From Christensenellales bacterium (GTDB lineage: Bacteria > Bacillota > Clostridia > Christensenellales > Aristaeellaceae), in assembly GCA_040768845.1 (NCBI GenBank), contig JAXGME010000004.1:106771-170770 (forward strand): 64,000 bases of DNA, read 5' to 3'. The position numbers and the translations under genes were made by a program. Below are positions 24,001-36,727 of the stretch, piece by piece (positions within the stretch are counted from its first letter, which is position 1; each line of letters opens with the position of its first letter). The notes beneath the pieces are model-generated. The model was given only the letters and a program-made list of their open reading frames with translations. It had not been told where the DNA came from and made no database searches.

Positions 24001-27000
24001 CGCCGATGTGAACGCCGCCTCGCTGACCATTGAAAACAGCTACACCGCGAAGGCCAACGCGGAAACGGCCCAGTCCACGGGCGGCGGCGTAAACGCTTCG
24101 GCCGTTTCCGGGAAGACGAACGTGGCGAGCGCGTCGGTGGGCATCCTCGCCGTCGCGGAGCTGCGGGGCGTGCCGGGCGCGTCGGCCCACGCGGTTTCCG
24201 TCGTCGGCGCGGTCAACGTGAAGGCGGCCGGCGTCGCGCAGGCGGTGGCGCTGGTGCAGGCGCCGTTCATAGCCCTCGGCGGCATCAGCGTCGCGGCCAA
24301 CGTGGTCGGCGCCAGCCTGGCGGGAACCCAGCGGGCGCGCATCCTCGATGTCCGACTCTCGGCGGGCTCCGTGACGGTGCTGTCCGAATTCAATAAGGGC
24401 AGGACGGACGGCGCGACGGCGACGCTTACGGGCCCCGGCGCCAGCGTGACGCTGGTGGAAGTCAACATCAACTCGGCGACGGCCACGGCCGGCAATTTGG
24501 TGGCCGCGGGCGTTAAGGGCGCGGACATCAACTGCGGCGCGCTGACCGTCATGGTGGACGCCACTTCCAATGCCGTCGCCAGCACGATGAGCGGCTCGTC
24601 CGTGGGCTTTGCGGGCCTCGGCGTGACGGTGATTACCGCGCTGGCCAACGGAGTTTTCGATGCCTTTATCGAGGACTCCGCCGTGGGCGCGGGCGCCGGC
24701 GCGGTGAATGTCCAGGTGGCGCACACCTCCCGGGCGGATGCGAAGGCCGCGCAGCCCAGCGGCGGTACGATCAGCCTTTCGGGCATCAGCATCGAGGGCA
24801 ACAAGGCGACGGCCACGGTCGGCACAAAGGCCGACGCGCGCGTCACCGGCGGTTCCATCACCACCACCGGCGCGCTCACCGTCCAGATTATCGGCACCGC
24901 CACGGCGCATGCGCAGATCCAGGGCGAGAGGCTTTCCATTTCGGTCGGCAGCATCGCCGTCAACCTGGTGCGGGCCGACGTCGCGGCGCGGCTCGGCGCC
25001 AGGATTGACCAGACTACGATCAAGGCGGGCACAGTTTCGGTGACGGTGAGCCTGAACAAGAAGGACAGAACCACGGGCGCCGTGGCGAGGGTTGGCAGCG
25101 CAGGCTCCGGAGGGGGCAGCCTCTCGCTGTTTGGCGGAAGCGCCAGCAGGGGCGACGCGCTGATTACCGCCATCGTCGCCGCGGCGGTGGCCGGCACGGC
25201 CATGGACGCCGCACAGCTCAACGTCTACGCCGACGTCAACGCCTACGCCAATGCGGATATCCTTTCGCCGAGCGGGTCGCTCAGCCTGTACAACGCCTCC
25301 GTGGTGGAGACCGCGGCCGACGCGGCCGGCAGCTACAGCGCCACCGTGGATACCACGGGGCAGGGGGGCGGTCAGGCGCTCAGCGTCGGCGGCCTCGACA
25401 TCAAGGTCACCTACTACGCCACGAGCACCGCGGCCACGGGCCCCGCGGGCGGGGTGAGCGCGAGTGTCGTCAATTCGAGCATGAACAAGGCGACCGCGCA
25501 GACGAGGCTGAGCGCCGCGGCGGGGCTTTTGGGCAGCGGCCGCCTGGAGGTGTCCGGCAACGCCAATGTCCAGGTGATCGGCCGCGCGAAGGCCGTCACG
25601 GAGGGCAGAACCTACAATCTGGGCATTTCCGGCGTCAAGATCGCCGTCAACTGGACGAGCGCCACCCTCAACGTTACCCAGAGCGCCAATGTAAAGAACA
25701 CCGGCACCATGACCATTGGCGGCACGCTGAAGATCAATTCGCAATTTGTCAGGGACGAAGGCTACGGCGGCGCGACGGCCACCACCGGCGGCGCGGGCGG
25801 CGGCAGCGTGTCGATTCTGGGCGCCACCACCAACGTGGCCAGGGCCATCGTCGCCGTGGAGATCTACGCCGGCATCACCAACGATGCGCTTGCCGTGCCC
25901 GGCCTCATCACGGCGGGTGCGGTGGACATCGACGCCTTGGCCAGTACCCTGTCCACAGCGGCGGCAAAGACGGGCTACGGGGTTTCGGTGGTTACGATCG
26001 GCAATCTGGACGCCGTCGCCATCAGCTACTCGACGGTGAAGGCATACATCCAGAACGCCCTCGTCGAAACCGCGAACAGCACATCTGTAAACGCCACGTC
26101 CGTCGCCGGCGCCAACGCCTCGAGTGAAGCGCCCGGCGGCATCGGCATTGCAAGCGGCACCAGCGCCAAGGCCAGGGCGTTTGTCGGCATGCCCGCCCCG
26201 GGCAACCTGTCGGATGACGACAGGTCGGGGCTGGACGGCCTGCTCGGGCAGAAGCCGCAGACCGTCAGCGCCTACGCGAGCGCGGCCTCCGTCACCGCGG
26301 GCGGGGATATCACGATCAGGGCCTACAACGAGGGGTATGCGGTATCCAACGTGGCGAAGGGCACGACGGTCTCCGGCGGGTCCATTTCCAGATCCTCGAT
26401 CCCGACGTTCTCGGAATACTACACCCATGCGCAGGTGCTTGGCGGCAGCGCGCTGGTCGCGGCGGGCAGCATCTCCATCACCGCCGAAGACCTTACCCAG
26501 GCGGACTCCGTGGCGAAAGGCCAGTCCATCGGCCTCATCGTAAACAGCGAAACCATGTGCGGCCGGAACTTCCAGGACGTCGTCACCCAGGTGGACATCG
26601 GCGCGTCCCTGCTCAAGGCGCGCGAGGCGCTGAACGTGCTGGCAACCTCCCGCGCGGTCATGGACGCGCAAACCGTCGCGGACGGCGGCGGCGCCTTTGA
26701 CGGCAGCAGCCTGTATGTGCACAACACCCTCTACCGCAACACCCGGGTCAGCATTCTGGACGGCGCCCATCTCGAGGCGGATTACGGAAACCTCGTCATC
26801 CAGGCGACTTCCGGCACCCGGGACTCCATCACCACGCGAGCCACCCTTTCCTCCGGCGGCGTGGTTGCGCTGGCCAAGATCCGCGGCTACACGACGGTGT
26901 CGAGCGGTGCCACCGTCAGCGTTGCGAGCGGCGCGCAGATTGTCGATACCTTCAATACCGTGCGGATCATCGCCGACGCGTCCATGAACAAGCTGTCGAC

Positions 27001-30000
27001 CGAACTGCGCGCGACCGCCGCGGGCTTGGGCGTCGCGCCCAACGTCCAGTCCAATACGAGCGTCACGATCAGGCCGCTGGTGGACATCGCGGGCTCCGCG
27101 GACAGGCGCGCGGGCATCACCGGGCGGTATGTGGAACTCCGCGGCATCACCAGCAAGCTCTACATCTACGATTACTGCTACGCCAGCGGCAAGGCGCTCG
27201 GCGCCAACGTCGTTGCGCATGTCCATCAGAATACGGACATTGATGTCGTGGTGAAGGTGTCCTTTGCCGTTATCAGGGCCTACGACGGCCTGACGATGAT
27301 CACCTCCTCCGCGCCCACCGGCGACAGCCGCAACGTGTACGCCCACTCCTCGACCAGCCTGAAGGCGATCGGCGAGTCCAACTCCAACGTGAGCATGACC
27401 TACGACAACAGCACCCGGACGGAGGTCAACACCGGCGTGGACGTGTACAGCGCGGACGTGTACATTTCGGCCGTGTCGCCCAGCGCCAACGCGGGCTACG
27501 ACCGCAGCAAGTCCGGCTTTATCGTCAAGTACCGCGGCGGCAGCCAGTCGCTGAAATCCTCGGCCGCAAGCTACATCAACTCCGGCGCGAGCTTCCACCT
27601 GGGCGACGCCGCGGCCGGCATCGTGATTGACATCTCCACCCGCAACGGCGTCACGCTGGTGCGCCAGGTGGGCCTCAAAAACGAGCGGCAAATCTGGACC
27701 ATTACTTCCGACGGCGTTCAGTTTGCCAACATCTCCAACAACCTGCCCGGCCGGATGCGGGTGCTGATGTTTACCGGCAGTACGAGTCCCTTCTTCAAGG
27801 TGTACAACCAGGAGTGGATTCCCGGGCTGACGCTGGTCAACCGGACGGACCTTGACGTGTCGTTCAAGGGCCTGGCGCTACGCAATACCAGCTTTATCGC
27901 GCCCACGGTGTCACTCACCTACCTGTCGAGCAGCTTCAGGCACAGCGGCGCTCAGGCTTCTGCCAACGCCACGCCGGCTGTCATCCTGGAGAGCCGCGCC
28001 GGCGGCGGCATCCACCTGGGCGGCTTGATCGCCAACCCCACCGGCACCGTGCGCATCCTCTTTACCGGCGAGAACCCCGGCGCGCTGACCTCCATCGGCG
28101 CGATGAGCACATCCAGCGGGCTGACAAACGTCGCCCCGATCTGGGCGCACGCGCTGACGATCTCCGGCGCAAGCAGCGTCGGCACGGCGTCAAAACCGAT
28201 CCTGGCCTTCCTGTTCGGCCTTGGCGACGAGGATCCGTCGGTCAGCGCCGTCGCCACGGGCGATATGCACATGGAACTGACGCCCGCAGAACTGAAGATG
28301 GTGGCCTCCATTCCCAACTCCCCCGACACCACCGCCCTTAAGTACAGGCTGCGCCTCGTCCAGGCGCTGACGGACGGCGTGAACGCCATCCGGCTCGGCG
28401 AGGGCCTGCGCATCTATCAGAAGGCCGGCACCTCGGTGGTGGCCATGCCGCAGCCCGGCACGCTTCTGTACCTGGTGGACGCGCTGGTGGGCCTGTCCGG
28501 CAACGTCGAACTGTCCAACCGCGACGCGCTGAACCACTACCTCGACAGCTACGATCCGGTGAGCGGCGTCTACAGCTACCAGCTGCCCAACGGCACCATG
28601 ATCTACACCGACGAGGAGGGCAGCGTGCTGCGCATCGCCGAGGGCGGCGTGGACTTTATGGTGAGCGATTTCAACTTCACGCTGAACGAGAGCGGCGCCG
28701 TCACCCAGATCAGCCTCGCGCAGGGCGTGCGCTTTGACGTGGAAAGAGGTCTGTTGTCCATCGAGGCGGGCTTCAACTTCAAGGCGCTGCTGTCGGCGAT
28801 CAAGGGCTCGTGGATCATGAACCATCTGGGCACGGGCACCGACCAGTTCACCTTCCTGTACGGCTATCAGCAGGGGAACGACGGGATCTATACGCCGCTG
28901 GAGTCGACGCTGACCCTGTGGCGCACGATCGGCAACCGCAGCTACTACTTCCTCACAAACGACACGATCACTCAGGACAAGATCTTTTCGGGGGACAGGG
29001 GCGTTTACATGCTCACCTACGACGCAACCGCCGACGTCCTTGCCGCCTACCACATTTCCTACGAAAATACGCTGGACGGCGTGGGAGACGAAGAAAATCT
29101 CATTCACTTCAAATGGGACGCTGACGATGACGATAATGCCAGGTTTGACATCACGTGGTTGAACGGATACGACAAGGATTCTCCCCCGCTGTATGGGTTG
29201 CCCGAATGGTGTGCCGAGTTGAACGGTGCGGAGTTGGTCAAGCGGGACAATCCGCAGACCTATGTTACGCATCTTCGGCTTCCGTTCTTTGAGCTGTCTC
29301 CCGACCTGTACCTGGTGTACAGAATCAGCGATGGCGTACTTTCTTATCTGTATGATGTTGAGGGGAACCCATCGTCCATGTGGAAGTCGGCCGCGCTGAG
29401 TTATTACTCCGTTGATTCCGCGGGCATTTATGTCATCGCGGCGGGCACGGAGCTGAAAAACGGCGTAAGGGTGAACGAGGACTATTTCTTCACCATTGAT
29501 TCCGGGAAGTTCACCGAAGTGGTGCGTGCACCCTACCACTACGTCGACGGTGACGGGACAAACTGGTACGGCGGCGGTACGTACTATCTGGATTCCTATG
29601 CGCCTACCCTCACTTATGCGGCAGCCGCGTCCATCTCGCTGTCCATCGGCAAGGCGGAGGGGAAGGATTACTTCCAGATTGGGTTTGACGGCGACGAGGG
29701 GGGCAATGTCACCTTTGAAGGTCCGGTGGAGGACATCCCGATCAAGGGTACCGCGTTGCCGCAGAACCACGTCCGGAACGGCAGCGGCTACCGCATTACT
29801 GCCTCCATGTACATCCACGAGGATGGTTTTGCCGTGATGTTCGCCACGGAGCGCGTTACGGATGAGAACGCGGCCAATTACGGCGAATACATCATCCCGA
29901 TGGTTTCGGGCTACGCCCGGTTTGCGGCCATGTACGACGGCGTCACCTATCGGTCGGACAAGCTGACCGCAGTCAACCTCCTCAATGCGGCCGGCGCCGC

Positions 30001-33000
30001 CGCCTTCGCGCCCATAATCACAATCCTCGGGTACGACGCAAGTACGGGCGCGATGCAGCAGGTGATGCTTGAGAGCCTGACGGGCGACGACGTCGGCAGC
30101 GTCGCCGTGGATGTGGAGGGCCGCTACTATCTGAAGACCGACGGCGGCTGGACGCTGATCGACGCCAGCAGGATTACCACCACCACACAGCACAGGACGG
30201 GGCTCATCATCAACGAGGAGCCGGAGGAAAAAGCGGACTGCGACGTGACCACCGTGACGATTGAGGGCATCCTGACCATTGAAACCACGGTGATTGCCGA
30301 AGGCACCGCGCGGGATGGCGAGATTGTGGACATCGTGTACACGCTGACGGGCAGGGACGGGACGATCGTCAGCATGCGCGGCCGCGTCGTGTTCCCCAAC
30401 GGCGCCACCGGCGCGCAGACTTCCGTCAAGCTGGCCGCGACGGAGTATCTGCTGGGCAACATCTCCGGCAGCAACGTGACCCTCGAAATGTCCGATTCCC
30501 AGGGCTCTATCCTGGACGGCAGGGCGGACGAAACCGCGCCCAACGTCAGCGCAACGGGCAACTTTGCGCTGGTCAGCGCATCTTCCGGGTCCATCGGCGC
30601 TGCGGCCAGGCCTCTGGCCATCGTCGTGGACGGCTATGTGATGTTCCGCGACCTCAGCGCCCACCGGCGGCTTGCCACGGATGCCTTCCTCAGGGCCGTG
30701 GACGGCAACCTCGCCTTTGAACCCGGAACGCGCGTCGAGGGTGCGACACTGGAGGCCGAGGCGGCGAATGGAAGCATTCTGTTTACCGACTTTGCCGCGG
30801 TCGCTTCCGCAGGCAAAGCGGCCAAGGTAACGCTGCGCGCGAGGGATAACATTACCGGAAGCCAGCGGCTGGATGTCGTGGACAGCAACGTCACCCTGAC
30901 GGCTGAAGGCGATATTACCGTGCCGGTGGTTACCGGTGCACAGGGCGCGTCCATTCAAATGGACGCGGACGGGAATGTCCGGATCGTCGCCGACGACGGA
31001 CTCAGCGTGGATCTCAACGCCAGCGCGATGGCCGTCGTCGCCGGTGGGTCCATCACGCTGGGCAATCTGCGTCTGGGCAGGGCCGCGCAGGGCGCGTCCG
31101 CCGGTTCCACCCTCAACCTGACGGCAGTGGATTTCATCCGTGCGGGGGACGCCAATCTGGACGGGAGCAAGCTTATCGCCGCCACCAATGACGGTGGCAT
31201 CACCATGGGCGCGCTGACGGGCACGTACGGCTCGGAGATCCGTCTGACGACGCATACGTACAGCGTCCTTGGCGCCGACATCCAGACCGACAGCGTGACG
31301 CTCGACGGCAGCCGGATCGTCTTTGATGCCTACAATGACATTTATATGGGCAATCTCTCCGCGGTCAACGCGTCCAACGCCCAGATCATCGCGTCGGGCA
31401 GCATAACGGCGGGCAGCGCATGGCTCAGCGCCAGTACGCTGAACGCGCTGGCGGAGAACGGCAGCATCAACATGGGCGCCGGCACGGCGCAGGAGCGCTC
31501 ATTGGTGACGCTGGACGCGGACGGCAGCATCCTGACCGGGAACGTGGAACTGTCCGAGACAAGCCGGATAGAGGCCACCGCCCAGACCGGAACCATCACC
31601 CTTGGAACCCTGACTGCCCGGCAGGCATCCAGTGCCTCGCTGGAAGCGGAGGGCGATATCCGCGCGGGCGACGTGACGCTGGCGGGGAGCACGCTGGACG
31701 CGCTGTCCCACAGCGGCGGCATCGCAACGCAGAACATCTTTGCGGAGGGTCATTCCGTTCTCGACTTTGACGCGGGCCGTGACATTCGCTTCCCGAACAT
31801 CACCGCCATGGACAGCGATATCCTCATGGACGCCGGAGGAGAGATTGCCTTCGTCCTGGCGGACTTTGTCCGCAGTTCCGTGGACATGACCACCCATGAC
31901 GACCTGGATTCGTCCACCGCCGGAGACATCACCTTTGACATCGTCGAGGGGATTGACACCGAGCTTCGCATGATCGCGGACGGCGGCGGCATCTACACCC
32001 TCAACGACTGGAGTTATCTGTACCTGCGCGGCGGATATTTCGTCACCCTTTCCGCGAGGGACGATATCGGCACCCTGGCGCGGCGGCTGATCGTAGACAT
32101 TCCCGCTGAGATGGGCCTTCGGGTGCTGGTGGTTGACAACTTCCACATCGACGCCCTGGATCTCGCCGGCGAGATCAAGTTCCTGCGCCGGCGGCCCGCC
32201 AAGGATGTGCGCGGCGGGCGCGATGAGCACGGCGTCAACCGTCTGGGCGACTGGCTCACGGGGGGCGGCATGCAGACGCTGTACCCGGCGCTGGCGGCGC
32301 AGGCACCGGATGCGCTGGCGGCCTGGCTCGCCGCGCGGAATGGCCGCGAGGTATGGTCCGCCCTCATCACCGACCAGGCCCTCAGCGCGCTGATCGCGCA
32401 GCGCGAGATTGCCAAGAGCGATCTCAAGGCGTTGCTGGTGGGCGGCGGCTTCAACACCAAGGCGTTCAACGCCGCGTATGCCGCAGGGCAGTACGATCTG
32501 CTGGCCGGGAAACTCCGGGATGCGCTGAATGTGGCGCCGCCCGCGGCGTCCGCCAAGGCCTCGGTCAGGTACGTGGACGACGCCCGCGCCCTGGACTGGC
32601 TGGCCGCCGCGATCGACGCGGGGCTTGTGGAAAACCTGGGTGAAGCGATCCACGGCAGCATGACCGCGGAAGACCTCATGGCGATTCTCGACGAGGCCTG
32701 GCGGAACGCGGACTATCAGGGCCGCATGGACACCGCGCCGGCAGACGGGCCTGCCCGCGCCTTTGTGATGACCATCGGCGAATCCTTTGGCGAGGGCCGC
32801 GTCTGGAACGCGGGGGACATTCTGATCCTGCAGCTTTCGGGCGATCTCACCGCCGCGGACATTCATTCCGACACCGGTGATGTGACGCTCGCAACGCCGG
32901 GCGGAAGCATCCTGGGTGCGGCTTCGGGCGTCGCCAACGTGCGCGGCCGCTACATCAACCTCTCCGCGGCCGGGTCCATCGGCGGCGCATCGCAGGCGCT

Positions 33001-35887
33001 CACCACCGAGCAGCAGATGAACCGCCCGGTGCTCGTCGGCAACATTGTGAACCCGCCGCTCGACGGGGCCGGGAACCCGGTGATAAATCCCGACGGCGGC
33101 TATGACTTCCTGCTGGTGGCTCGGCCGGTTCTGAACGTGGCGGGCCTGCCGGCGCTGGACGACAGGCTCAGGCCCATCCTCGAGTGGACGGTCTGCGTTC
33201 AGATCGGCTACGATTGGCTGCGGGTGGAATATCCGGGCGAGGCGACCCGACTGGACGCCGTATCCGGTGCGGACATCTTCATTCATGAGTTGACGGGCGA
33301 CATGGGCGTGGGCAGTCTGACGGCGGCGGGCGACGTAGGCCTGAGCGCCGCGGGCAGCATTCTGGATGTGCGCGCCGCAGGCGAGGCCATGCTCAACATC
33401 GCGGCGGGCGGTGACGTCCGCCTGAGCGCCGCCTCCGGCACCATCGGCACCCGCGAAAATTACCTGGACATTGATGTGGACGGCGTCGTGACAGCGGATG
33501 CCTCCGGCGACATCAGCATTGCCCATGCGGCGGACATGATCCTCGTCGCGGACAGCAGAAACGGGCAGGTCAACGCCGACGCGGCGGGCGATCTGGATCT
33601 TTCCAACACCGCGGGCGACCTCGTAATCGGCCCGATCTATGCCGGGGCGGATATCACGATCACCGCGCAGGGCAGCATCCTGCCGGGCGACAGGCTGGGC
33701 CGCGACGCGCAGGTGAAGGGCCGCAGCATTGCGCTAAGCGCGCTGGGCGGCACCGCGGGCACCGCGGCCGCGCCGCTGGATGTGGACACTGACGCACCGG
33801 GCGGCGGCACGCTTTCGATCTTCGCGGCCTCCACCGTGTTTGTGCGGGAATTGACCGGAGATCTGCGGCTTGAAAGGCTTGTATCCGGCGGAGATGCGAC
33901 GCTCATCATTCCCGACAACCTGATTGACGCCGCAAATCCGCTGTGGAACGACGCGGCGGCGATGTACCTTGCGTCCTTTGAGGCCTTTGACCGGTTCACG
34001 GCCCTGTCCACCATCGCTGAGGTGCTTCGCGGCTACGCCGACCGGCTGTGGGAGAAGCTGGATGCCGCCAGCGAAAAAGTGAACGCCCTGGGCAGCGCGC
34101 TGGCGGACCTGATGGCGAGGATTTCGGACCTCGAACGCCAGATTGCCGATATGGATGGAGATCCGTCCAGGGCCGCGCGCCTGAAAAAGCTGAAGGCAAA
34201 ACAATCTGCGCTGGCAGCCCAGGCCGCGTCGCTGACCGAGCGGCTGAACGAGGCGCTGCAGCGGCAGGCGGCAGCCCAGGCCGCCTTTGACCAGGCGGAC
34301 CGGCAGACCGACATCGCGGAGGGCGAAGCCGCCGCGCAGCACGGCGTCGTCACGGACAGCGTGGCGGAAATGGTGCGGCGCATCCGCGGCGCCATCGGCC
34401 GCGACACCGTGGAGGTTGCCGGAAACCTGCTGCTCCGCGCGGGCGGCAGCATCGGCGAGGCCGACCACGCGCTGTCCATGCTGGTGAGCGGCACGGTGAC
34501 GGTCGATCAGGGCGACAACCCGTCGGACGGTCTGTACATCGCCAGCGGCGGGCCCATCACGTTCTCGGGCATCAACGCCTACGGCAATGTGGGCATCATC
34601 GCGCTGGGGGACATCCGCTTTGCACCCGGACGGGGGCTGAGCGCGGAGGTCGCCTCCCTCCTGTCGCTGAACGGCGACGTGGGCAGCAAAAAGCGCCCGG
34701 TCCTCGTGAACGCGGGCGAGGTCTCCGCCGCCGGAAACAACGTGTACCTGCGCAGCGCCAGGAATCTGCGGGTGGATACCATCATCGCGGGCAATGAGGC
34801 GCGCATCCGGTCGGACGGCGGCGTTACCGGCGTCCTGCGCGACGCGGGCGACGACCGCACCCACTTCTCCGCCCCGATGCTGGATATCGAAGCGGGCGGC
34901 AACGTCGGTGCGGCCTCCAACCCGCTGCGGCTCAACGTGGACAGACTGAAGCTCCTTGCGGGCAATGTGACGCTGGCCAACATCTCCGGTGCGCTGGACA
35001 TCGTCCGGCTGCGCGGCAACCGCGTGAGGATTGACGCGCTGGGCGGCGTGCTGGGCGGGCCGATTTATGCCGACAGGCTCACCATCCGCGCCGGCGGCTC
35101 CGTGGCGACAAAGGACGATCCGCTGATCCTATGGGTGCCCGGCGATGTGCGCATCACGTCGGTGTTTGGCCGGGTGTATTACATCAACCGTTACCGGCCC
35201 GCCGTTAAGGACGCGGTTCGGGTGCTCTATCTGATGCGCTTCCCGGTGACCGTTTTTGCGGACGGTCAGCCCCGGACCCTTGCGCTGTACATTGCGGCCA
35301 CCCGCGGGGTGGACGGCTCCGTCACCATGCGCGGCGCTTGGCTGCTGGCGGAAGAGCGCGCTGCGGACTTTGCCGGGTTGATAAGGCAAATTGCCGCCCA
35401 GGGTGTGGCGAACCCGGCCTTCATCTTCGCGCAGCCGCTGCCCGGCCTTGCGCAGGCGCTCCGGAGTGCCTATCCGGGCGCTGTGGTTCAGGGCGGCGCG
35501 ACGATGTGGATTCTCGGCGCGCTGATCGGCGCGGATGCGCCGGATATCGAGGCGCTGCTTGAGGATCTCCAGCAGATTCTGACGGCGGATCGCGAAGCGC
35601 AGGCCGTGCGCCTGATCGAGGCGTTTTCCGCGCGGTGGGGCGAGAAGTATCCCGAAATCGCGGCCATGCTGTCGGAGGGCTGGACCGACCGCGCCGAGTT
35701 CTTCCGGATGCGTGCGGCCGACAGAAGGGCCGCCTGCGACCTTGCGGGCTTTGCGCCCTTCCTGATGGCGCTGCAAGCGGCGCTGGGTGCGGACGGCGGC
35801 TTTGAGAATGAGAACGCGCTGACGGATGCGCTGGCGCCTGTGCTTATTCAGGGCATCCAGGCTTCCGCGCTGGAGAAGGCGGCGTAG
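8888..35887 (+). CDS. giant (8,999-aa) secreted or surface repeat protein, beta-helix / filamentous-adhesin-like; function unknown
   Basis: One uninterrupted frame runs from TTG 8873 to TAG 35885-35887. The best start is ATG 8888, 6 nt after GGAGGAG (8875-8881). GC3-dominated codons occur in this frame only; every other frame breaks within 0.2-4.4 kb. The N-terminus is a basic stretch plus hydrophobic helix plus AVASA. The body is Ala/Gly/Val/Thr/Ser-rich periodic sequence. Confidence 0.9.
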   Translation: MRLHGLSGRRARRKRLWKKNLVLISLVFALILSTMAVIAETSAVASASSLEAFEAPPSLDGGASPALLADSGALVTLDSGSGASEPTAAPEAEQEPEPAAAPEAEQQPEPTAAPEAEQEPEPTAAPEAEQQPEPTAAPEAEQQPEAEPEPTAAPEAEQQPEPTAAPEAEQEPKPTAAPEAEQPPEPTATPEAEQQPEPTAAPGIEAQAYVAIPEAGQSSEPQGMVLAAEPLGAIAAKGGVDTAGAKDTVEAYAIPAGSAYIREAAGLLTYKNDATANAIQNALQDALTTARDAVNKTATIVVTDGTYNGGVNLDASAGSSLSELLLSIFGSADAAKGVKLQIVAEDALNEAGEATANSAGGAQVDGSVTISGLDVVLAGLYFSTRAMVSVSDADSFSYYGTRLSDDVDISVSRVKKNIKVDLGEGDDKASVRIKQAPTVSASMTVTPEMGQDATAIFEALTSFKASEISQLGASLADAVRSFLATLNGSISGMVVSDSLTVDIDGGAGEDEIAVKHINSTDLTMASGDAGSTYGFAIDLSKVDTSIRGGAGSDVLGATGGMELTYGRKVVSALMEYVAEEFDIAGSNLRFFGGDGDDVITVDTTAAFPSFRGVTVDVAGGAGFDRLHLTGKLNDRIDAASRITGNTSELTIEALAEITFLGDLIDGIRIPFTKRMVVNSTGVDAFTDALKNKNTVALSALAPGAAAQSFTDYVLDASGPVDYTANLAIPGGGLMLANIVADGGESLTVTRLVAPDFNLLLSGGEITVGGEVRGKNILINSVVTDIAEAAIEQTIIEDDLNEENTVDIEVGFYKANGAAKITVAPSANLVATQAIDMLASLTLDKPYLPTGDIFNPFTLKLGEVNIDIRGALAAGGSIRADALYSSTVSATNGLLKVVIPFGVAAITGDTRITVGGGARLNAGAGVLLRAASDTSAEAEATMGALKFTLALAVVQAETHVKVGDTAAIAAGGAVKLSAMNAVRAEAAALGKKPSMLALKPASGGYIAGSFVFQDTSATIADHASVSSGAALSVRSESRLNTATTTVSIPASQSDGSGGESFLPTDQIRLMSIVPFVETKLLKVEKAPNQTAFGKLLSGVTGSNSLGNKFTDATKTASSSGTPSSTKQVVGALALAYAGNTNSALIDTTGSVTAAGALDVTALAATVNQVRADGSLYKTPMAQAEDAKNSVGAGVAIAVTNHDNSARIIAGSIAARGLSVSAVTGRIVSSSIAKAGHIPKTSSFGLGGAVSVHVVIGRNEALVGSGAAYNLTGGAVNVVSTGNGAFTTVGDASGKRVTPSLSFGGITIPLKPTTGSEKDSVGIGAGIAVSVTGADFIAKVEDGVRFGTAVLDGVNVKASFSGTETIHAAAGAAGGTSIVPVLALAVSGVYSQAYLGTQSGALSATGDVAISAANSMKRSVAADAAAAGSGVGVGASFGIAVINDSAEATLKRSVTAANVLVDAKSVSRLTMTIKASAVGAMPPTSTSTGDAASGKTQEDYDKMKDDGWPLDDNGDDMRSLFNEGEADQMADKNTQAAADLAAGANTNNVNAGSVNQLSQDRPRAETNEGSIQVAASLALNILSNKSLATVGGGIAVTATDKVRVRAVNDTDATISANASATKSTTGVGVAVAINYVRYQNKAKIGASTLRAKSLLVEADIVEADNKKTVEEILTKLLTYFATTEGTEFLMDALLAVEGQASLDALLAANGLYGADYAALTATEKESLRKLIIQQLTEQLTSGQRGDAAGALLSGLIESTVKDFFDTLTDPDFILNMVLGAPDASIGNLFSQLALKGKVAAAAIQEAIVLSLAQKFGNPGELDGIGCLISTSAISGVGAANVGVAGSAAIAVVDGETEALIESRTGYVDGDIAVTEDAAIRARAAQKVYTTATASADKNGKPVKNKDDSSGTSVGVGASAAISIVDVDAIASLGSYRRLSAGTLAILSEAQNDIDSVTIAGADPIARREAVKVTPPGIGQEVSQPAANNTTTKDISVDAAVALAVITNNVLAQVLEHASVTTTGHDTVKTGVVDGAGVEEMVNFLLSAYQRGQTKASASGFAVAGDKAAVGAAIAVNIAMSDVRATFAGVGLVAGSAKITALTSNEDEANALATVVGASLDRYFDRLRTALRLGSVGSGGGSGKMNATIVNKINGFLPKAKELTANVPFSAKLFDLLGVKTPAAPSSSTASGAATGNAGGNANSQSLDDSAKKEQSINLAAALGVNVTNHCATAEMTGSLTAKNAEISAADRSNFRTTGSGATVTLPSQQNANNIALGIAVTVNRNKAHSTVGGSLTATGSGSNNGAIRVTSAATQNMDGAYRGLLGAQAVACAIAGSGGKVGLAGAVAVMVAGAESIARIAEGALVRGGAISILATDQSKLAVRAGSVSATGASAGVGASFALIYAESLTRATIGKNAQVYGGSLKLSAEKLRVDSTDYQFPLGISTLFTVDASADRSGIVNLKTSGGYALELNLGMDDVMKTLDMLNFLASVNYYVEAIAGSVVGSSDAKLALAGSVAMLFTNNETAAEVGDGAVIVLTDGSLDVDASSDTVARLIGGAVAATTGKSGVGVNIAALADEDMVRASIGAGAKLGASGDVTVDAAAASDTWAVTVAAGVSTGSGPSIGGSINMIVSGNTVWAGALGADGDTAGGEEITAGGDVRISADNVAKMTLISASLGAGSGVAAGGTAAVIVTNNDTRAALGAGAKLTAGRSAAISARSAETMLNILASLSGSTGKVAAAGTLGVMVSQSLTQASVGAQAQVTAADGGVQVTADGAVTQVVVMAAASGSTGGAAVGGTVNVGVFDHQVNALVGQGAKLQAQKLAQGNNVIVRASADNSTILITFAGAASSSSAAIAGAIPVVVVSDKVQVDVGSYVIIEAGDSIAIISRAESGLYNIAGSVAVSAGQAGAGATIATLVIGNSVNTRIGNRAKMIAHAVMEDAALPAGVQLPNRDARRRGVLVSATANSTLAMISGSGAASTGNAAVAGVVHTLVLKNSVKAVVGDHVVMVAGRESSTPGSTKTGDGEVIVESDDDSHIYNIAGAVSASSGAGVGASVVVMVYDKRMEASVGDGGTIIATDDVTVQSTSKDTVILLALSFAGGGNAGVAVSASALVFENDLFAALGGSVFSDGDVLVNADSETTMVNTAAAVAVSGTAAVTPVAIVTYFEGATNALFRVGADILAAGGVSLRAKSKEFITSDAAGVSASGTASVSGTVDVVLSKQKTTAVTGSGVVIDAAALNVNAADDYQLVGVVATIAGSGTAGVAITALVSVLHNTVSAILGGNNRITTRSGDVSVNASAKRDIGAYAGTVAAGQVGVGGTLMVVVAGGRMKQDAADQLSASFKPGEFMDGAFSSSHGAASGYEKDDVGAMLEGDGDQQSKTNVGSGGSFDGTGGYKDDSVSGDVSVAPGKNADNSKAQAPGADTSFGSNGDIDSAAAIGSAKPTYASQDATSAIIGAGTVVNSARDILVTSGDDLVADLIAGTITGGVYAAVGAGVAVAVLFSNVEAKVEDGATLHAGRDIKILATAGSTTVEDTDTQRTGALKDSFSAGSNNPMDLTRRTIRAISITGGGALVGVSVSLASVNVFSTVIATLKGDVTKSASLTVMASCDYPNVLAATLTASAGGAAVGASVAAAVFGATVESSVAGDAKISGTQAVNVASRLNTGAISGAGAFAAGGVAGNGAVALVVNISRVDTFIGRGATVSRSDALALSVNADVDTAARAYVLSVAVSGSVSIGLSAAVTVIKPEVLTYIGTTPTGHTAHSGAGAAGGSVNAWRVEVKNDVTSLAQSLIAAFSAGGVAVNGNVLLTFNFTDAVAALSGATVTADAVSINAYMDSTARSVVLAGTAGSAAIGVTVSYVHLRSSNIARIDGGMLEADAIGLYAGKLGRANTATAEATAVAGSIGAVAVGLNTAIADNHAQNIAEILNGNIAADTILEVYAVGTATATARVLGFSAGVVNVAGTYVLALLRSEQQARILGGSVTAGELFVKSYLNNAAGDSTLAQIVTGSGGLLSATVNMALAYGRASSVAVVAPAFMTIGGSAAIGSYGYQQVRTEILNLLDASAYGAAVMVGFAYAQGEFNARLAVTDGPAAVDINAASITVESIYTAAAVSRVTPSAGGVSLSVASAKANAAVALVSVSATAAIDGTGALSAGQVTVLTQGVASSLAEVLTPKYQVGVATVAVNAILSKLSARQKAYILGVSIINASSVTVRSELNKGKTTGASAKLHATGAGVSVGLLDVRANIAVALSDSESIAFVVGVPISGGALLIQSDASSIAEAKIDTASFGAAAVSLGLNALYAYANGDFRAYAVTAGAAMNPASLAVQVNHTATSEADTTQSPVSAAFSAVSAKTNLAVAVTGLVAEAAILGDALRLVADGILDQATLSAYGLNGVGGSVSAATVDVLVAGIAAATTTVAQAAMELNYASVGVNVLISRLTAVQNAVISGATISGGAVTVRSTLNAGGTGSARAMLSGSKVNISLYDGKANAVYALADAASIACIDQSAIDLTGALQVLSEGSSLAGAGVVQGSGLGLVAVGLTIVEADASGDFRADIQTAADKPVKAASIRVGANYTALAQAATTQAAGGVSGSLVSGDTNMATAKVTNRARAAVTGGGGVWVTGDMIVSAIGTAVALAVVEEPTASLSGISVVANVLSAVLASEQKAYIAGGQIKAGRVNVVSEYNKGAPSSASGGATAALRGTGSGVSLHFVNVGVNTAAAAVRAVSAAYISGADILAGTGAVTVTSDATSLASALVEQSSSAGYAAFGVTTVNAAADGTFLAYLAANGASVNAASLTIANHYRAKADAATAQSSGSVEHSVLSGRTNAATAKVGTWAEAQVYGAEQSGVIDGSLTIAGALTVTVTGIAAARAEVAQPTVSLAGISITANILDASLKSYQRARISGVGLRAGSVAVASNCNQGAENSADGGATAVLRGTGIGGAGAFKLTLVGAEVNTAIALADATSIAALEYANVLAGTGALSIRSNGTSLAWAGVEQASGVGLATFGVTIVKADANGSYAACLDASGADVNAASLTIENSYTAKANAETAQSTGGGVNASAVSGKTNVASASVGILAVAELRGVPGASAHAVSVVGAVNVKAAGVAQAVALVQAPFIALGGISVAANVVGASLAGTQRARILDVRLSAGSVTVLSEFNKGRTDGATATLTGPGASVTLVEVNINSATATAGNLVAAGVKGADINCGALTVMVDATSNAVASTMSGSSVGFAGLGVTVITALANGVFDAFIEDSAVGAGAGAVNVQVAHTSRADAKAAQPSGGTISLSGISIEGNKATATVGTKADARVTGGSITTTGALTVQIIGTATAHAQIQGERLSISVGSIAVNLVRADVAARLGARIDQTTIKAGTVSVTVSLNKKDRTTGAVARVGSAGSGGGSLSLFGGSASRGDALITAIVAAAVAGTAMDAAQLNVYADVNAYANADILSPSGSLSLYNASVVETAADAAGSYSATVDTTGQGGGQALSVGGLDIKVTYYATSTAATGPAGGVSASVVNSSMNKATAQTRLSAAAGLLGSGRLEVSGNANVQVIGRAKAVTEGRTYNLGISGVKIAVNWTSATLNVTQSANVKNTGTMTIGGTLKINSQFVRDEGYGGATATTGGAGGGSVSILGATTNVARAIVAVEIYAGITNDALAVPGLITAGAVDIDALASTLSTAAAKTGYGVSVVTIGNLDAVAISYSTVKAYIQNALVETANSTSVNATSVAGANASSEAPGGIGIASGTSAKARAFVGMPAPGNLSDDDRSGLDGLLGQKPQTVSAYASAASVTAGGDITIRAYNEGYAVSNVAKGTTVSGGSISRSSIPTFSEYYTHAQVLGGSALVAAGSISITAEDLTQADSVAKGQSIGLIVNSETMCGRNFQDVVTQVDIGASLLKAREALNVLATSRAVMDAQTVADGGGAFDGSSLYVHNTLYRNTRVSILDGAHLEADYGNLVIQATSGTRDSITTRATLSSGGVVALAKIRGYTTVSSGATVSVASGAQIVDTFNTVRIIADASMNKLSTELRATAAGLGVAPNVQSNTSVTIRPLVDIAGSADRRAGITGRYVELRGITSKLYIYDYCYASGKALGANVVAHVHQNTDIDVVVKVSFAVIRAYDGLTMITSSAPTGDSRNVYAHSSTSLKAIGESNSNVSMTYDNSTRTEVNTGVDVYSADVYISAVSPSANAGYDRSKSGFIVKYRGGSQSLKSSAASYINSGASFHLGDAAAGIVIDISTRNGVTLVRQVGLKNERQIWTITSDGVQFANISNNLPGRMRVLMFTGSTSPFFKVYNQEWIPGLTLVNRTDLDVSFKGLALRNTSFIAPTVSLTYLSSSFRHSGAQASANATPAVILESRAGGGIHLGGLIANPTGTVRILFTGENPGALTSIGAMSTSSGLTNVAPIWAHALTISGASSVGTASKPILAFLFGLGDEDPSVSAVATGDMHMELTPAELKMVASIPNSPDTTALKYRLRLVQALTDGVNAIRLGEGLRIYQKAGTSVVAMPQPGTLLYLVDALVGLSGNVELSNRDALNHYLDSYDPVSGVYSYQLPNGTMIYTDEEGSVLRIAEGGVDFMVSDFNFTLNESGAVTQISLAQGVRFDVERGLLSIEAGFNFKALLSAIKGSWIMNHLGTGTDQFTFLYGYQQGNDGIYTPLESTLTLWRTIGNRSYYFLTNDTITQDKIFSGDRGVYMLTYDATADVLAAYHISYENTLDGVGDEENLIHFKWDADDDDNARFDITWLNGYDKDSPPLYGLPEWCAELNGAELVKRDNPQTYVTHLRLPFFELSPDLYLVYRISDGVLSYLYDVEGNPSSMWKSAALSYYSVDSAGIYVIAAGTELKNGVRVNEDYFFTIDSGKFTEVVRAPYHYVDGDGTNWYGGGTYYLDSYAPTLTYAAAASISLSIGKAEGKDYFQIGFDGDEGGNVTFEGPVEDIPIKGTALPQNHVRNGSGYRITASMYIHEDGFAVMFATERVTDENAANYGEYIIPMVSGYARFAAMYDGVTYRSDKLTAVNLLNAAGAAAFAPIITILGYDASTGAMQQVMLESLTGDDVGSVAVDVEGRYYLKTDGGWTLIDASRITTTTQHRTGLIINEEPEEKADCDVTTVTIEGILTIETTVIAEGTARDGEIVDIVYTLTGRDGTIVSMRGRVVFPNGATGAQTSVKLAATEYLLGNISGSNVTLEMSDSQGSILDGRADETAPNVSATGNFALVSASSGSIGAAARPLAIVVDGYVMFRDLSAHRRLATDAFLRAVDGNLAFEPGTRVEGATLEAEAANGSILFTDFAAVASAGKAAKVTLRARDNITGSQRLDVVDSNVTLTAEGDITVPVVTGAQGASIQMDADGNVRIVADDGLSVDLNASAMAVVAGGSITLGNLRLGRAAQGASAGSTLNLTAVDFIRAGDANLDGSKLIAATNDGGITMGALTGTYGSEIRLTTHTYSVLGADIQTDSVTLDGSRIVFDAYNDIYMGNLSAVNASNAQIIASGSITAGSAWLSASTLNALAENGSINMGAGTAQERSLVTLDADGSILTGNVELSETSRIEATAQTGTITLGTLTARQASSASLEAEGDIRAGDVTLAGSTLDALSHSGGIATQNIFAEGHSVLDFDAGRDIRFPNITAMDSDILMDAGGEIAFVLADFVRSSVDMTTHDDLDSSTAGDITFDIVEGIDTELRMIADGGGIYTLNDWSYLYLRGGYFVTLSARDDIGTLARRLIVDIPAEMGLRVLVVDNFHIDALDLAGEIKFLRRRPAKDVRGGRDEHGVNRLGDWLTGGGMQTLYPALAAQAPDALAAWLAARNGREVWSALITDQALSALIAQREIAKSDLKALLVGGGFNTKAFNAAYAAGQYDLLAGKLRDALNVAPPAASAKASVRYVDDARALDWLAAAIDAGLVENLGEAIHGSMTAEDLMAILDEAWRNADYQGRMDTAPADGPARAFVMTIGESFGEGRVWNAGDILILQLSGDLTAADIHSDTGDVTLATPGGSILGAASGVANVRGRYINLSAAGSIGGASQALTTEQQMNRPVLVGNIVNPPLDGAGNPVINPDGGYDFLLVARPVLNVAGLPALDDRLRPILEWTVCVQIGYDWLRVEYPGEATRLDAVSGADIFIHELTGDMGVGSLTAAGDVGLSAAGSILDVRAAGEAMLNIAAGGDVRLSAASGTIGTRENYLDIDVDGVVTADASGDISIAHAADMILVADSRNGQVNADAAGDLDLSNTAGDLVIGPIYAGADITITAQGSILPGDRLGRDAQVKGRSIALSALGGTAGTAAAPLDVDTDAPGGGTLSIFAASTVFVRELTGDLRLERLVSGGDATLIIPDNLIDAANPLWNDAAAMYLASFEAFDRFTALSTIAEVLRGYADRLWEKLDAASEKVNALGSALADLMARISDLERQIADMDGDPSRAARLKKLKAKQSALAAQAASLTERLNEALQRQAAAQAAFDQADRQTDIAEGEAAAQHGVVTDSVAEMVRRIRGAIGRDTVEVAGNLLLRAGGSIGEADHALSMLVSGTVTVDQGDNPSDGLYIASGGPITFSGINAYGNVGIIALGDIRFAPGRGLSAEVASLLSLNGDVGSKKRPVLVNAGEVSAAGNNVYLRSARNLRVDTIIAGNEARIRSDGGVTGVLRDAGDDRTHFSAPMLDIEAGGNVGAASNPLRLNVDRLKLLAGNVTLANISGALDIVRLRGNRVRIDALGGVLGGPIYADRLTIRAGGSVATKDDPLILWVPGDVRITSVFGRVYYINRYRPAVKDAVRVLYLMRFPVTVFADGQPRTLALYIAATRGVDGSVTMRGAWLLAEERAADFAGLIRQIAAQGVANPAFIFAQPLPGLAQALRSAYPGAVVQGGATMWILGALIGADAPDIEALLEDLQQILTADREAQAVRLIEAFSARWGEKYPEIAAMLSEGWTDRAEFFRMRAADRRAACDLAGFAPFLMALQAALGADGGFENENALTDALAPVLIQGIQASALEKAA
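9140..9495 (+). repeat. in-frame 36-bp tandem repeat encoding (T/A)AAPEAEQ(Q/E)PEP, about 9 units plus a partial unit
   Basis: Near-identical 36-nt units (gccgcgccggaggc[ct]gaacag[cg]agcccga[ag]ccgacc) repeat directly. One unit carries an extra GAAGCCGAGCCC-type insertion. The encoded Pro/Glu/Ala-rich stretch looks like a spacer. Confidence 0.9.
10150..10775 (+). other. five dispersed GGxGxD-type (calcium-binding-like) motifs in the N-terminal region of the giant protein
   Basis: LGEGDDKA (~10151), DGGAGEDEI (~10397), RGGAGSDVL (~10526), FGGDGDDVI (~10658), AGGAGFDRL (~10740). They are separated by 27-82 aa and are not a contiguous RTX nonapeptide array. Confidence 0.5.
11560..20700 (+). repeat. 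divergent tandem array of a ~55-aa (~165-nt) Ala/Gly-rich repeat, probably beta-helix coils
   Basis: The anchor G-x-G-x-[SA]-x-A-x(5)-[ND]-x(3)-A-x-[IV]-G recurs, e.g. GVGVGASFGIAVINDSAEATL (~13170), TGVGVAVAINYVRYQNKAKIG (~13755), SAGVGASFALIYAESLTRATIG (~16065), GAGVGASVVVMVYDKRMEASVG (~18040). By eye I found 38 anchors between ~12.45 and ~20.6 kb, mostly 155-175 nt apart. Confidence 0.8.
20500..26050 (+). repeat. higher-order tandem array of at least 8 divergent ~230-aa (~690-nt) supermodules, each about four basic units
   Basis: Motif A (L...Q[KRQ]A[YR]I.G......V.V.S..N.G) occurs at ~20801, 21467, 22208, 22877, 23585, 24302, 24962 and 25649. Motif B (AS[LI].[VI]...[YH].A.A.A.T.Q..GG.S) occurs at ~21200, 21872, 22610, 23299, 24019, 24700 and 25389. 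Spacing is 660-741 nt. Confidence 0.8.
27650..30520 (+). other. non-repetitive, aromatic/Asp/Asn-rich, probably globular region of the giant protein
   Basis: The Ala/Gly periodicity is lost. The sequence is rich in Y/W/F/D/N (e.g. HFKWDADDDDNARFDITWLNGYDKDSPPLYGLPEWCAEL, YHYVDGDGTNWYGGGTYYLDSY). GC is visibly lower: about 47% in a 60-nt sample at 29101-29160. Confidence 0.7.
30520..35180 (+). repeat. second repeat class, FhaB/filamentous-haemagglutinin-like (G[DS]I..[AL]...G.I), interrupted by helical segments
   Basis: Examples: GDVTLATPGGSILGAASG, GDVGLSAAGSILDVRAAGEAMLNIAAGGDVRLSAASGTIG, ADITITAQGSILPGD, GRSIALSALGGTAGTAAAPLDVD, EAGGNVGAASNPLRLNVDRLKLLAGNVTL. The period is irregular, about 20-40 aa. 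Confidence 0.6.
33935..34345 (+). other. predicted coiled-coil segment near the C-terminus of the giant protein
   Basis: An Ala/Leu/Gln/Glu/Lys/Arg-rich, heptad-like stretch: LWEKLDAASEKVNALGSALADLMARISDLERQIADM...RLKKLKAKQSALAAQAASLTERLNEALQRQAAAQAAFDQADRQ. Confidence 0.6.
35180..35884 (+). mobile_element. IS256/Mutator-type transposase core-like segment (5'-truncated, DDE residues apparently lost) fused in frame to the 3' end of the giant gene
   Basis: It is collinear with IS256/IS1081 transposases as I remember them: YLM..V.V..DG...L.IA..GVDG....G.W...E.A.....L...A.QGV......+....GL.QALRSAYPGA..Q.....+....DLQ.I......EA..L+..F...WG.KYPEI...L..GW.....FF........GGF.N.NAL.D.L. Compare ...LDxFxxKWxxKYPxI...W...FFxFP...FPNxxAL.... 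The catalytic D/D/E positions read R, Q/P and A/F. Confidence 0.45.
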
Positions 35888-35906
35888 CTTTTTCGGGGGC
35901 AATTGC

Positions 35907-35943
35907 GCGGGGCGCGGCCGGGCGAAAGCCCGCCGCGCCCCGC
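35907..35943 (+). terminator. GC-rich stem-loop with a GAAA tetraloop downstream of the giant gene (possible terminator)
   Basis: GCGGGGCGCGGCCGGGC-GAAA-GCCCGCCGCGCCCCGC forms a 16-bp stem with a one-base bulge, starting 20 nt after the TAG. No clear U-tract follows. Confidence 0.45.
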
Positions 35944-36202
35944 CGTGCCCGGTGGGTGAATATTTGCATAAGGCCCGTAGTACGATGCTGGAAGCGGGGA
36001 GGGATGCACGCTGGAATACCAGGATTGAGCGGCCGCGGTTGAGACTGCCCGGACTTGCGGCATATCTATGGCAACGCCGCATAAGGGCGGACGGCGCAGA
36101 ATTTGGATTTATTAAAGCCGATCCGGGAAAAGCGCGGGTGGAATCCCGGAGAAGTCCTCGCCGCCCCTGCTGTCCAGCGGGTTTGGCAATCCTGCACGAT
36201 GG

Positions 36203-36236
36203 AAAAACGCCCGCCCGCTTGCGACGAAACGGGCGG
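36203..36236 (-). terminator. intrinsic terminator of the MerR-family gene
   Basis: On the minus strand, CCGCCCG-(12 nt)-CGGGCGG is followed by GCGTTTTTCC, 34 nt downstream of the merR-like stop. Confidence 0.5.
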
Positions 36237-36269
36237 AGAGGGGCGCGGAGGGTGCTGGAAAACAGGGAA

Positions 36270-36668
36270 TTACGCCGTGCCGGATCGGTCGCCCTGCGCC
36301 TTTTGATACTGCGCGTACTGGCGCGAGAAGAACTCAATCTTGCAGGCCACCTTGTCCAGATGGCGGTGCATTTCGTCAATCTGCGCCTCGACCTGTTTTT
36401 TGTGTTCGAGCAGAAGCTCGCACCGGCGCTTCAGCGTTCCGTCCCCTTCGAGGCTCAGGTCCACAAACTCCCGAATCTGCTTGATGGACATGCCGGTGTT
36501 CTTCAGGCATGTGATCAGGCCGATCCATTCCAGATCTTCGCCGGTGTAGCGGCGTATTCCGCTCGGGGTACGCCGGACGCTGGGCAGGAGCCCTTCCTTT
36601 TCATAAAACCGAAGCACCGTCGGACGGATATGCATCTTTTCCGATACCTGATGGATGGAGTACTCCAT
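36270..36668 (-). CDS. MerR-family transcriptional regulator (NmlR/AdhR-like)
   Basis: The N-terminal MerR HTH is YSIHQVSEKMHIRPTVLRFYEKEGLLPSVRRTPSGIRRYTGEDLEWIGLI. It is followed by TCLKNTGMSIKQIREF (Cys at residue 54) and a coiled-coil dimerisation helix. RBS AAGAGGTG. Confidence 0.9.
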   Translation of the reverse strand: MEYSIHQVSEKMHIRPTVLRFYEKEGLLPSVRRTPSGIRRYTGEDLEWIGLITCLKNTGMSIKQIREFVDLSLEGDGTLKRRCELLLEHKKQVEAQIDEMHRHLDKVACKIEFFSRQYAQYQKAQGDRSGTA

Positions 36669-36696
36669 ATTTACACCTCTTTTACACCGCCACGTA

Positions 36697-36727
36697 TTGA
36701 CTTGAAGTAAACTTTAAGCCTTATAAT
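36697..36727 (+). promoter_or_regulatory. MerR-type promoter: -35 TTGACT, 19-bp spacer containing an imperfect palindrome, -10 TATAAT
   Basis: TTGACT is at 36697-36702 and TATAAT at 36722-36727, so the spacer 36703-36721 is 19 bp. The dyad CTTGAAGT-aa-ACTTtAAG (36701-36718) has one mismatch. The promoter drives the aldo/keto reductase gene and is divergent from the merR-like gene. Confidence 0.75.

Follow-up and report, generated by a model that had tools for sequence, protein, structure and literature searches.

A central, repeat-free beta module with variation concentrated at one site in a giant, putatively secreted fibre protein of a Christensenellales bacterium and its relatives

Introduction

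Hardly any of the giant surface proteins of uncultured gut Clostridia are annotated, and little is known of the means by which such bacteria attach to particles, mucus or partner cells. The question raised by the present locus is what a long stretch of unique sequence is doing between the repeats of one such protein. The stretch of DNA analysed here, hereafter the window, comprises 64,000 nucleotides (nt) of a Christensenellales bacterium (assembly GCA_040768845.1, contig JAXGME010000004.1, positions 106,771 to 170,770 of the forward strand) and contains one open reading frame (ORF) of exceptional length:

8873-35887, plus strand: a single unbroken ORF of 9,004 codons encoding the giant protein (ORF list, translation, repeat map and collinearity with the ortholog L002, described below)

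A reading made from the sequence only had singled out window 27650-30520, corresponding to residues 6260-7216 of this 9,004-amino-acid (aa) product, as a non-repetitive, aromatic-rich region of about 950 aa and as the candidate functional head of the fibre. The analysis described here places this region in a central, family-defining, repeat-free beta module, in which variation is concentrated at one constant site, of a giant beta-rich and putatively secreted fibre. The protein is of a familiar kind, but the module constitutes a domain family new to it.

Results

A unique module between two repeat rods

From N- to C-terminus the giant protein comprises a signal-peptide-like start, Pro/Glu-rich 12-aa repeats, a first rod, the central unique module, a second rod and a transposase-like domain. 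The two rods are of different types, rod 1 consisting of Ala/Gly-rich repeats (about residues 850-5800) and rod 2, which follows the central module and includes a helical and coiled-coil segment, being Asp/Gly/Leu-rich with repeats over residues ~7200-8330. Self-BLAST of 100-aa tiles detected repeats across ~850-5800 and again from 7200, while tiles 6001-7151 were without internal repeats, and profile-profile comparison of nine sub-blocks of the region gave no hidden repeats or propeller blades (hhalign probabilities ≤2%). The repeat map places the module 67-81% along the chain and between two repeat rods, as had been proposed, and the five peptides quoted in the sequence-only reading are all in frame in the giant ORF, at residues 6308, 6567, 6745, 6888 and 7003 (nt 27794-29950). 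Further repeat-free parts of the protein are found at residues 1-850, ~1650-1800, 7600-7950 and 8350-9004, the N-terminal one being a second long non-repetitive region.

The combined Ala and Gly content falls from ~31% in rod 1 to 15-22% in the central region, and Phe, Trp and Tyr together account for 10.0% of residues 6260-7216 and 12.7% of residues 6549-7140 as compared to 4.2% elsewhere in the chain (Fisher p = 2.3e-15, with an odds ratio of 3.3). This enrichment is restricted to residues 6549-7140, the first 290 aa of the proposed region (6260-6548) containing 6.2% aromatics, and the homologous segment was equally enriched in all six relatives examined (11-13% versus 4-6%). The original description consequently stands with regard to the absence of repeats and the raised aromatic content, while its extent requires revision: the aromatic part is shorter than ~950 aa and the unique region is longer, running from about residue 5850-6000 to ~7200, with the family-conserved module reaching ~7300.

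Parts of the module

As predicted from alignments and AlphaFold2 models, the module (residues 6000-7300) is composed of a beta platform, a conserved LPNG beta-hairpin domain, a lineage-specific insert and two further conserved beta blocks, for which confidence is given as the predicted local distance difference test (pLDDT):

26870-27592, plus strand: long-strand antiparallel beta sheet, residues 6000-6240 (AlphaFold2, pLDDT mostly 85-97)
27593-28516, plus strand: short-strand, helix-free beta platform, residues 6241-6548 (pLDDT 75-95 over most of it)
28517-29074, plus strand: aromatic-rich beta-hairpin domain, residues 6549-6734 (two independent models, alignment A2)
29075-29602, plus strand: lineage-specific insert and candidate variable surface, residues 6735-6910 (composition, alignments)
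29603-30292, plus strand: conserved block 2, predicted to be beta-rich, residues 6911-7140 (alignment A1; aligned in P0004-P0009 and others)
30293-30772, plus strand: conserved block 3, residues 7141-7300 (aligned in P0005-P0008, P0027 and P0032)

The long-strand sheet, with strands of 13-19 residues, is non-repetitive yet rod-like and forms the start of conserved block 1. The short-strand platform, within which the first 290 aa of the proposed region fall, bears the strongest motifs of the family, FxxGDAAAGIxIDI, VRQVG, VYxQxxIP, ITNRTD, APIWAH and PxPGTLxY in the consensus of alignment A3, and its identity in ortholog pairs (57-76%) is among the highest of the protein. The hairpin domain, of which 14.0% is Phe/Trp/Tyr, carries a near-invariant turn, Y-x-LPNG-T-x-x-Y-x-D-x-x-G (nt 28571-28621), together with an LLS...W helix, positions L32, P33, N34 and W108 being nearly invariant in alignment A2, and was modelled as successive hairpins of 4-7 residues, accompanied by two or three short helices. 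The insert consists of 16.5% Phe/Trp/Tyr and a further 16.5% Asp/Asn, and contains the acidic cluster HFKWDADDDDNARFD (nt 29105-29179) as well as YHYVDGDGTNWY. Block 2 is characterized by the motifs DIPIKxTALPxN...GYRITxSxYI, FxAxYxGxxYxSD and QxVxLE...GRYY...W, and block 3 by a VGSDGSV-like motif and YxxGxIxGxxVxIxMxDxxGSxLDG. Block 3 leads into rod 2, the end of the region as first proposed (30520) lying inside it and the repeats resuming at tile 7201.

Within block 2, residues 7062-7108 (nt 30056-30196; QQVMLESLTGDDVGSVAVDVEGRYYLKTDGGWTLID) repeatedly gave a weak similarity over 45 residues to the FN3-like repeats of P0059, an unrelated autotransporter-like protein, which hints at a possible FN3/Ig-like sandwich; PF00041 (fn3) was not matched by residues ~7060-7140 in a Pfam search at E up to 10.

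A rare family of giant proteins

An exhaustive HMMER search covering 1.84 billion representative proteins yielded 63 family matches, several of them giants of 4,565-7,984 aa. The only name borne by the clusters that were looked up is 'hypothetical protein', and their source metagenome-assembled genomes (MAGs) are labelled bacterium, Bacillota or Coriobacteriia. A scan of GTDB species genomes identified an ortholog on contig L002, from an uncultured Oscillospiraceae MAG, which is collinear with residues 3230-9003 at 56.6% identity, and a GTDB scan with alignment A1 returned only this contig and L005, from a Bacillota MAG, which is ~70% identical over the ~2,670 residues compared (63-76% per block) and 68% identical by tblastn over residues 6540-7216. 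No relative was obtained from JGI metagenome contigs with either the single protein or alignment A1. Given so few matches and no named members, the family is considered rare and uncharacterised.

Word-indexed protein searches, using the single sequence and profile A2, returned fragments of the same gene alone, including the frameshifted P0001 from another assembly, and the exhaustive search was required to bring the family to light. In L001 (a contig of GCA_030153585.1) and in other public assemblies the same gene is broken by frameshifts, the resulting fragments (P0001-P0003, P0013, P0014, P0021, P0029, P0045 and P0064) being 50-611 aa long and 91-100% identical to the window protein (71% in the case of P0001). 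The giant ORF was thus missed by word-indexed searches because databases hold the frameshifted gene as many short 'proteins'.

Approximately 42 members align to block 1 (residues 6000-6750), and the block pattern of the family is 6000-6750, a variable gap, 6910-7130 and 7160-7290. The module is present and conserved in every large member, is situated exactly between both rod types in every full-length member, and is the sole part conserved enough to define this rare family of proteins of 4.5-9 thousand residues.

The C-termini, in contrast to this shared centre, are polymorphic across the family. P0015 ends in LPQTG followed by a hydrophobic stretch and RRRQRS, which constitutes a sortase signal, while P0010, P0017 and P0032 end in a hydrophobic helix with a basic tail; P0007, P0008 and P0033 carry a C-terminal Cys-rich domain, the C-termini of P0005 and P0006 gave no Pfam match, and the window protein and its L002 ortholog end in the transposase-like domain. 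The LPQTG and membrane anchors of these relatives support a cell-surface location for the family.

A fixed point of variation flanked by conserved blocks

The insert (residues 6750-6910) could be aligned only with L002, L005, P0004, P0008 and P0062, while the equivalent gap in other members measures from 155 to ~1,185 aa (the longest in P0015), an approximately eight-fold range, and holds unrelated content including helical repeats. Across four ortholog pairs the identity of the insert was 47.2, 37.1, 42.7 and 63.4%. In three of these pairs no central segment scored lower, and in P0005/P0006 the insert differed from the lowest by no more than one percentage point. Nowhere else in the protein is conservation as high as in the blocks next to the insert in the two low-GC pairs (5125-5890 in P0005 and 5243-5800 in P0007). 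Judged by these alignment identities, the conserved blocks evolve more slowly than any other part of the protein, and within its centre the insert evolves fastest. Since the best-conserved blocks flank a hot spot of sequence and length variation, this is the pattern expected of a functional, and possibly ligand-facing, element.

Predicted structure and searches for a known fold

An AlphaFold2 model of residues 6000-6750, computed with alignment A3 (26 sequences), had a mean pLDDT of 79.9 and was all-beta, with values mostly of 85-97 up to residue ~6520. A second, independent AlphaFold2 job covered residues 6540-7216, and the secondary structure of residues 6549-6734 was the same in both models (pLDDT 58-79 in the first and 60-88 in the second). 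In block 2 the pLDDT was 80-88 for residues 6920-6959 and 60-84 for 7050-7139, with low values between, and in block 3 it was 45-50. Residues 6260-6548 were modelled as a confident, helix-free beta structure continuing the long-strand sheet of residues 6000-6240, and on the strength of this model may simply be shaft.

Pfam, NCBIfam and PHROGs yielded no match to the region or its sub-blocks, nor to 24 aligned relatives and the inserts of seven relatives, and Pfam searched with each sub-block at E up to 10 gave no lectin, carbohydrate-binding module (CBM), propeller, RHS/YD or fn3 match. Against the PDB, a single-sequence search and profiles A2 and A3 gave zero matches even at E = 10, and no hydrolase, lyase or peptidase was matched in Pfam, NCBIfam, PHROGs or PDB. 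When the models were compared by Foldseek, the best E-values were about 0.01-0.02 (none <0.009), the template modelling (TM) scores were mostly <0.15 and the lists consisted of generic propellers and a few beta-helix proteins with probabilities of 0.01-0.4; for the 6540-7216 model they included the propeller-like lectins FleA and AAL at a non-significant E of ~1.3 (probability 0.02-0.07). A lectin, CBM, propeller or peptidase fold, for which the sequence-only reading had advised a search, was therefore not recovered by Pfam or PDB searches or at significance by Foldseek, in which the insert was represented by a model of low pLDDT. The statement in the same reading that no family could be recognised is upheld, as no trivial, well-known module was matched in Pfam, NCBIfam, PHROGs, PDB or Foldseek. 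Neither sequence comparison nor predicted structure related the module to a described family or to a solved fold.

Discussion

A proposed variable binding surface on the shaft of the fibre

The reading that we tentatively prefer, while placing it somewhat short of an even chance, is that a conserved frame holds out a variable binding surface along the shaft of a fibre at the cell surface, as suggested by the alignments and models. In this view the conserved domains would form the frame, and the Tyr/Trp/Asp/Asn-rich insert that they support would face sideways from the fibre and bind the ligand. Surfaces rich in aromatic residues and in Asp/Asn are typical of carbohydrate-binding sites, and the ligand would most plausibly be a glycan, held by aromatic stacking and by hydrogen bonding through Asp/Asn, and the DADDDDN and DGDG loops may bind Ca2+; specificity would differ from one lineage to the next. 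The fibre is taken to be on the cell surface in view of its signal-peptide-like N-terminus and of the LPQTG or membrane anchor present in some relatives.

A bolder version of this proposal is that the LPNG-hairpin and GYRIT/GRYY beta frame constitutes an undescribed ligand-binding architecture, in which unrelated cassettes of 150-1,200 aa, inserted at one fixed point, confer specificity. Borne on the shaft of the giant surface fibres of gut-type Clostridia, it would be a modular, laterally presented adhesin head of new fold; this we regard as conceivable and rather doubtful.

A number of observations weigh against a binding surface. No binding fold or family was recovered for the module, and Foldseek found nothing significant for either model in the PDB or for the 6000-6750 model in BFVD. 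The insert itself (residues 6735-6910) was not confidently modelled, at pLDDT 31-53, which is ascribed to a shallow alignment and not to disorder, as the insert is hydrophobic and aromatic; because of this low confidence the missing fold match is uninformative for the insert. In the comparison with L005 the aromatic residues are more conserved than the others (77% versus 67% identical), a pattern that packing in a core would explain no less well than a binding surface, and the drop in identity at the insert is of moderate size among the most similar pairs (63% versus 69-76%, and 47% versus 53-64%). The position of the module is also unfavourable: the window protein has no recognisable anchor, and in the anchored relatives the module lies mid-shaft, ~1,500-2,100 residues from the anchor, and not at the distal tip, where Gram-positive fibrillar adhesins usually bear their adhesive domain, at the N-terminus (PMC8286594). 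Finally, the glycan-utilisation genes upstream of the giant gene, described below, are not conserved beside the giant genes of relatives.

The proposal of a functional head is accordingly retained in part: the module is discrete, conserved, distinct from the rods and a hot spot of variation, while the first third of the region (6260-6548) may belong to the shaft. Two outcomes had been named in advance as speaking against a head, namely a clear match to a trivial, well-known module and a predicted structure that merely continues the beta-helix; the former was not found and the latter is possible for residues 6260-6548, so that the proposal is neither clearly overturned nor clearly out of danger.

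Alternative explanations

The strongest alternative, which we consider possible though on balance unlikely, is that the module is a structural junction, a conserved adaptor, hinge, or folding or oligomerisation nucleus joining the two rod types, which has no ligand of its own and in which the insert is a tolerated surface loop. Its position at the boundary of both rods in every full-length member agrees with such a role, as do the continuous, helix-free beta structure of residues 6000-6548 that extends from the rod, the preferential conservation of aromatics and the failure to detect any binding or catalytic family, and the conserved blocks are the most conserved in the protein, as would be expected of a folding core. 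However, some 1,300 unique and strongly conserved residues are unexpected for a mere linker across relatives at ~30-40% identity, and inserts of up to ~1,200 aa at one fixed position resemble cargo or specificity elements, not tolerated loops.

An enzymatic head, that is, a novel glycan-degrading or peptide-cleaving site on the shaft as in beta-helix depolymerases and tailspikes, is improbable. Such a site could be sought among the invariant polar motifs of block 1 (GDAAAG, YxQ, NRTD and WAH), a Klebsiella phage depolymerase and tapirin-type beta-helices are among the weak Foldseek matches, and the window gene adjoins GH29 and GH106 genes; yet these Foldseek matches are non-significant (E ≥0.1, probability ≤0.05, TM <0.1; for the depolymerase E = 0.11 and TM 0.08), no hydrolase, lyase or peptidase family was matched in any of the four databases, and the glycosidase neighbours are not conserved at the loci of relatives.

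Programmed hypervariation, as the target of a diversity-generating retroelement, or recent acquisition of the segment as foreign DNA could draw on the insert being the most divergent segment and on a GC content that drops to 0.607 at window 28001-30000 from 0.67-0.69 in the rods, but is effectively excluded, as the 64-kb window holds no template-like direct repeat involving 28900-29700, L002 and L005 carry the segment in collinear, alignable form, and the GC dip results from the loss of GC-rich Ala/Gly codons. The DNA of the region contains no meaningful direct or inverted repeats, and no reverse transcriptase was found among 30 plus-strand ORFs scanned (19-8819 and 35826-52179), the part beyond 52179 and the minus strand having been incompletely scanned.

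Comparison with known systems

Fibrillar adhesins consist of a stalk, an adhesive domain and a sortase anchor (Monzon et al., PMC8286594, PMC9210967). The window protein resembles them in being a very long, putatively secreted single chain made up mostly of a repetitive stalk, with a non-repetitive candidate binding module, and some of its relatives end in LPQTG or a membrane anchor. It differs in that its stalk is not built of known stalk domains, its module matches no known adhesive domain and is internal, between two rods, instead of terminal, and the chain has no recognised anchor and ends in a transposase-like domain. Of the features by which fibrillar adhesins are recognised (PMC8286594), the protein has the long repetitive stalk and lacks a known adhesive domain and a surface anchor; as it departs from the class in adhesive domain, position and anchor, it is not classed as a fibrillar adhesin despite the 'stalk plus head' resemblance.

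Filamentous beta-helical exoproteins of the FhaB/LktA type are of comparable size and filamentous character, and the Ala/Gly/Ser/Val-rich rod of the window protein gave repeated matches to the LktA repeat model NF012206 (LktA_tand_53) of NCBIfam at 47.2 and 47.3 bits, below the cut-off of 50. In contrast to those exoproteins, residues 1-1500 lack a two-partner secretion (TPS) or haemagglutination-activity domain in a Pfam scan, the host belongs to a lineage of Gram-positive type, and the matches are confined to rod 1, the module having no counterpart in that group.

Beta-helix adhesins and depolymerases, namely the Caldicellulosiruptor tapirins (4wa0, 6n2b), Ag43 (4kh3) and a phage depolymerase (7vul), appear on the Foldseek list for the 6000-6750 model, residues 6000-6548 of which share with them a helix-free beta structure; with E-values of 0.1-0.45, probabilities of 0.01-0.05, TM-scores ≤0.11 and no sequence similarity, the only likeness is that of an elongated all-beta protein. 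A likeness to RHS/YD repeats is visible by eye in the motif Y-x-LPNG-T-x-x-Y-x-D-x-x-G-x-V-x-R-I and the 4-7-residue hairpins that follow it, and the Rhs structure 7pq5 was listed at E = 0.15, but the RHS/YD family (PF05593) was not matched in Pfam at E up to 10, the motif is single and not part of an array, and the Foldseek probability was 0.13.

Beta-rich proteins of several thousand residues, mainly metagenomic, have been described as Omnitrophota giants and as Oscillospiraceae giants of the RCC1 type (bioRxiv 10.1101/2023.11.21.568195). The window protein shares with them large unannotated segments, and one of these classes likewise comes from Oscillospiraceae; unlike the Oscillospiraceae giants, which consist of RCC1 propeller repeats over their whole length, it has neither RCC1 nor other Pfam repeats and is of a different architecture.

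The module combines a confident AlphaFold model over 520 residues with the lack of any match in the PDB or a viral structure library. Should it be a binding head, a construct of 600-1,300 residues would make a ligand search tractable for an otherwise intractable protein of 9,004 residues, and a new adhesive domain family would be added to the catalogues from which fibrillar adhesins are predicted. Should it be a junction only, it would still represent a new beta architecture and a useful family signature.

Other features of the giant protein

The N-terminus consists of the basic MRLHGLSGRRARRKRLWKK, a 19-residue hydrophobic stretch and AVASA, a leader of the AxA type, and by inspection is signal-peptide-like, resembling a Sec signal peptide; the Pfam scan gave no domain at this end. 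Directly after this leader, window 9061-9566 is occupied by a 36-nt tandem array encoding (APEAEQxPEPTA)n. Pro/Glu-rich spacers usually span the cell wall, the array being N-terminal here and not C-terminal. Residues ~5950-6080 (nt ~26720-27110), which lead up to and include the start of the central module, resemble residues 913-998 (nt 11609-11866), where rod 1 begins (BLAST E = 2.6e-6), and the two segments may represent a shared rod-capping or rod-starting element.

At the opposite end, both a sortase motif and a hydrophobic tail are absent from the last 60 residues, and the last ~250 residues contain a transposase core of the IS256/Mutator family fused in frame (window 35246-35731, residues 8792-8953). 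This domain scored 54.5 bits with Pfam PF00872 (cut-off 21), 4e-16 with a PHROG transposase and 5.5e-07 with PDB entry 6xg8, and is present also in the L002 ortholog (44.9 bits). In the alignment with 6xg8 the aspartates of the transposase motifs IDAI and CADAL, which we take to be catalytic residues of the DDE motif, stand opposite M/R and Q of the window protein, and from this alignment the domain looks catalytically dead; it may represent an exapted or fossil transposase on a surface-protein gene. A polymorphic-toxin reading of the whole protein was rejected: although the C-termini do differ, the ORF is not followed by any small immunity-like gene, and the genes that come next encode a MerR-like regulator, on the opposite strand, and an aldo-keto reductase.

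Neighbouring genes

Minus-strand ORFs of up to 1,472 aa occur inside the giant gene, including 28190-31255 (-) and 23570-27691 (-); the four tested (153-1,373 aa) matched no domain and most probably owe their length to high GC content, being artefacts and not genes. Upstream of the giant gene, window 19-2397 (+) and 2966-7095 (+) contain genes for a GH29 alpha-L-fucosidase, a GH106 rhamnosidase-like protein, a GntR regulator and a sugar ABC transporter. The gene immediately upstream, at 7221-8819 (+), encodes a TPR-repeat protein, and on the contig of the distant relative P0005 such a gene likewise directly precedes the giant gene (L004 8241-9554), which suggests that the TPR gene and the giant gene form a conserved two-gene module, perhaps with the TPR protein as a chaperone or export partner. 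Some 5 kb downstream, window 41228-43486 (+) encodes a 752-aa protein with seven PG_binding_1 repeats (E = 9e-100), a candidate and possible cell-wall-associated partner of the giant protein.

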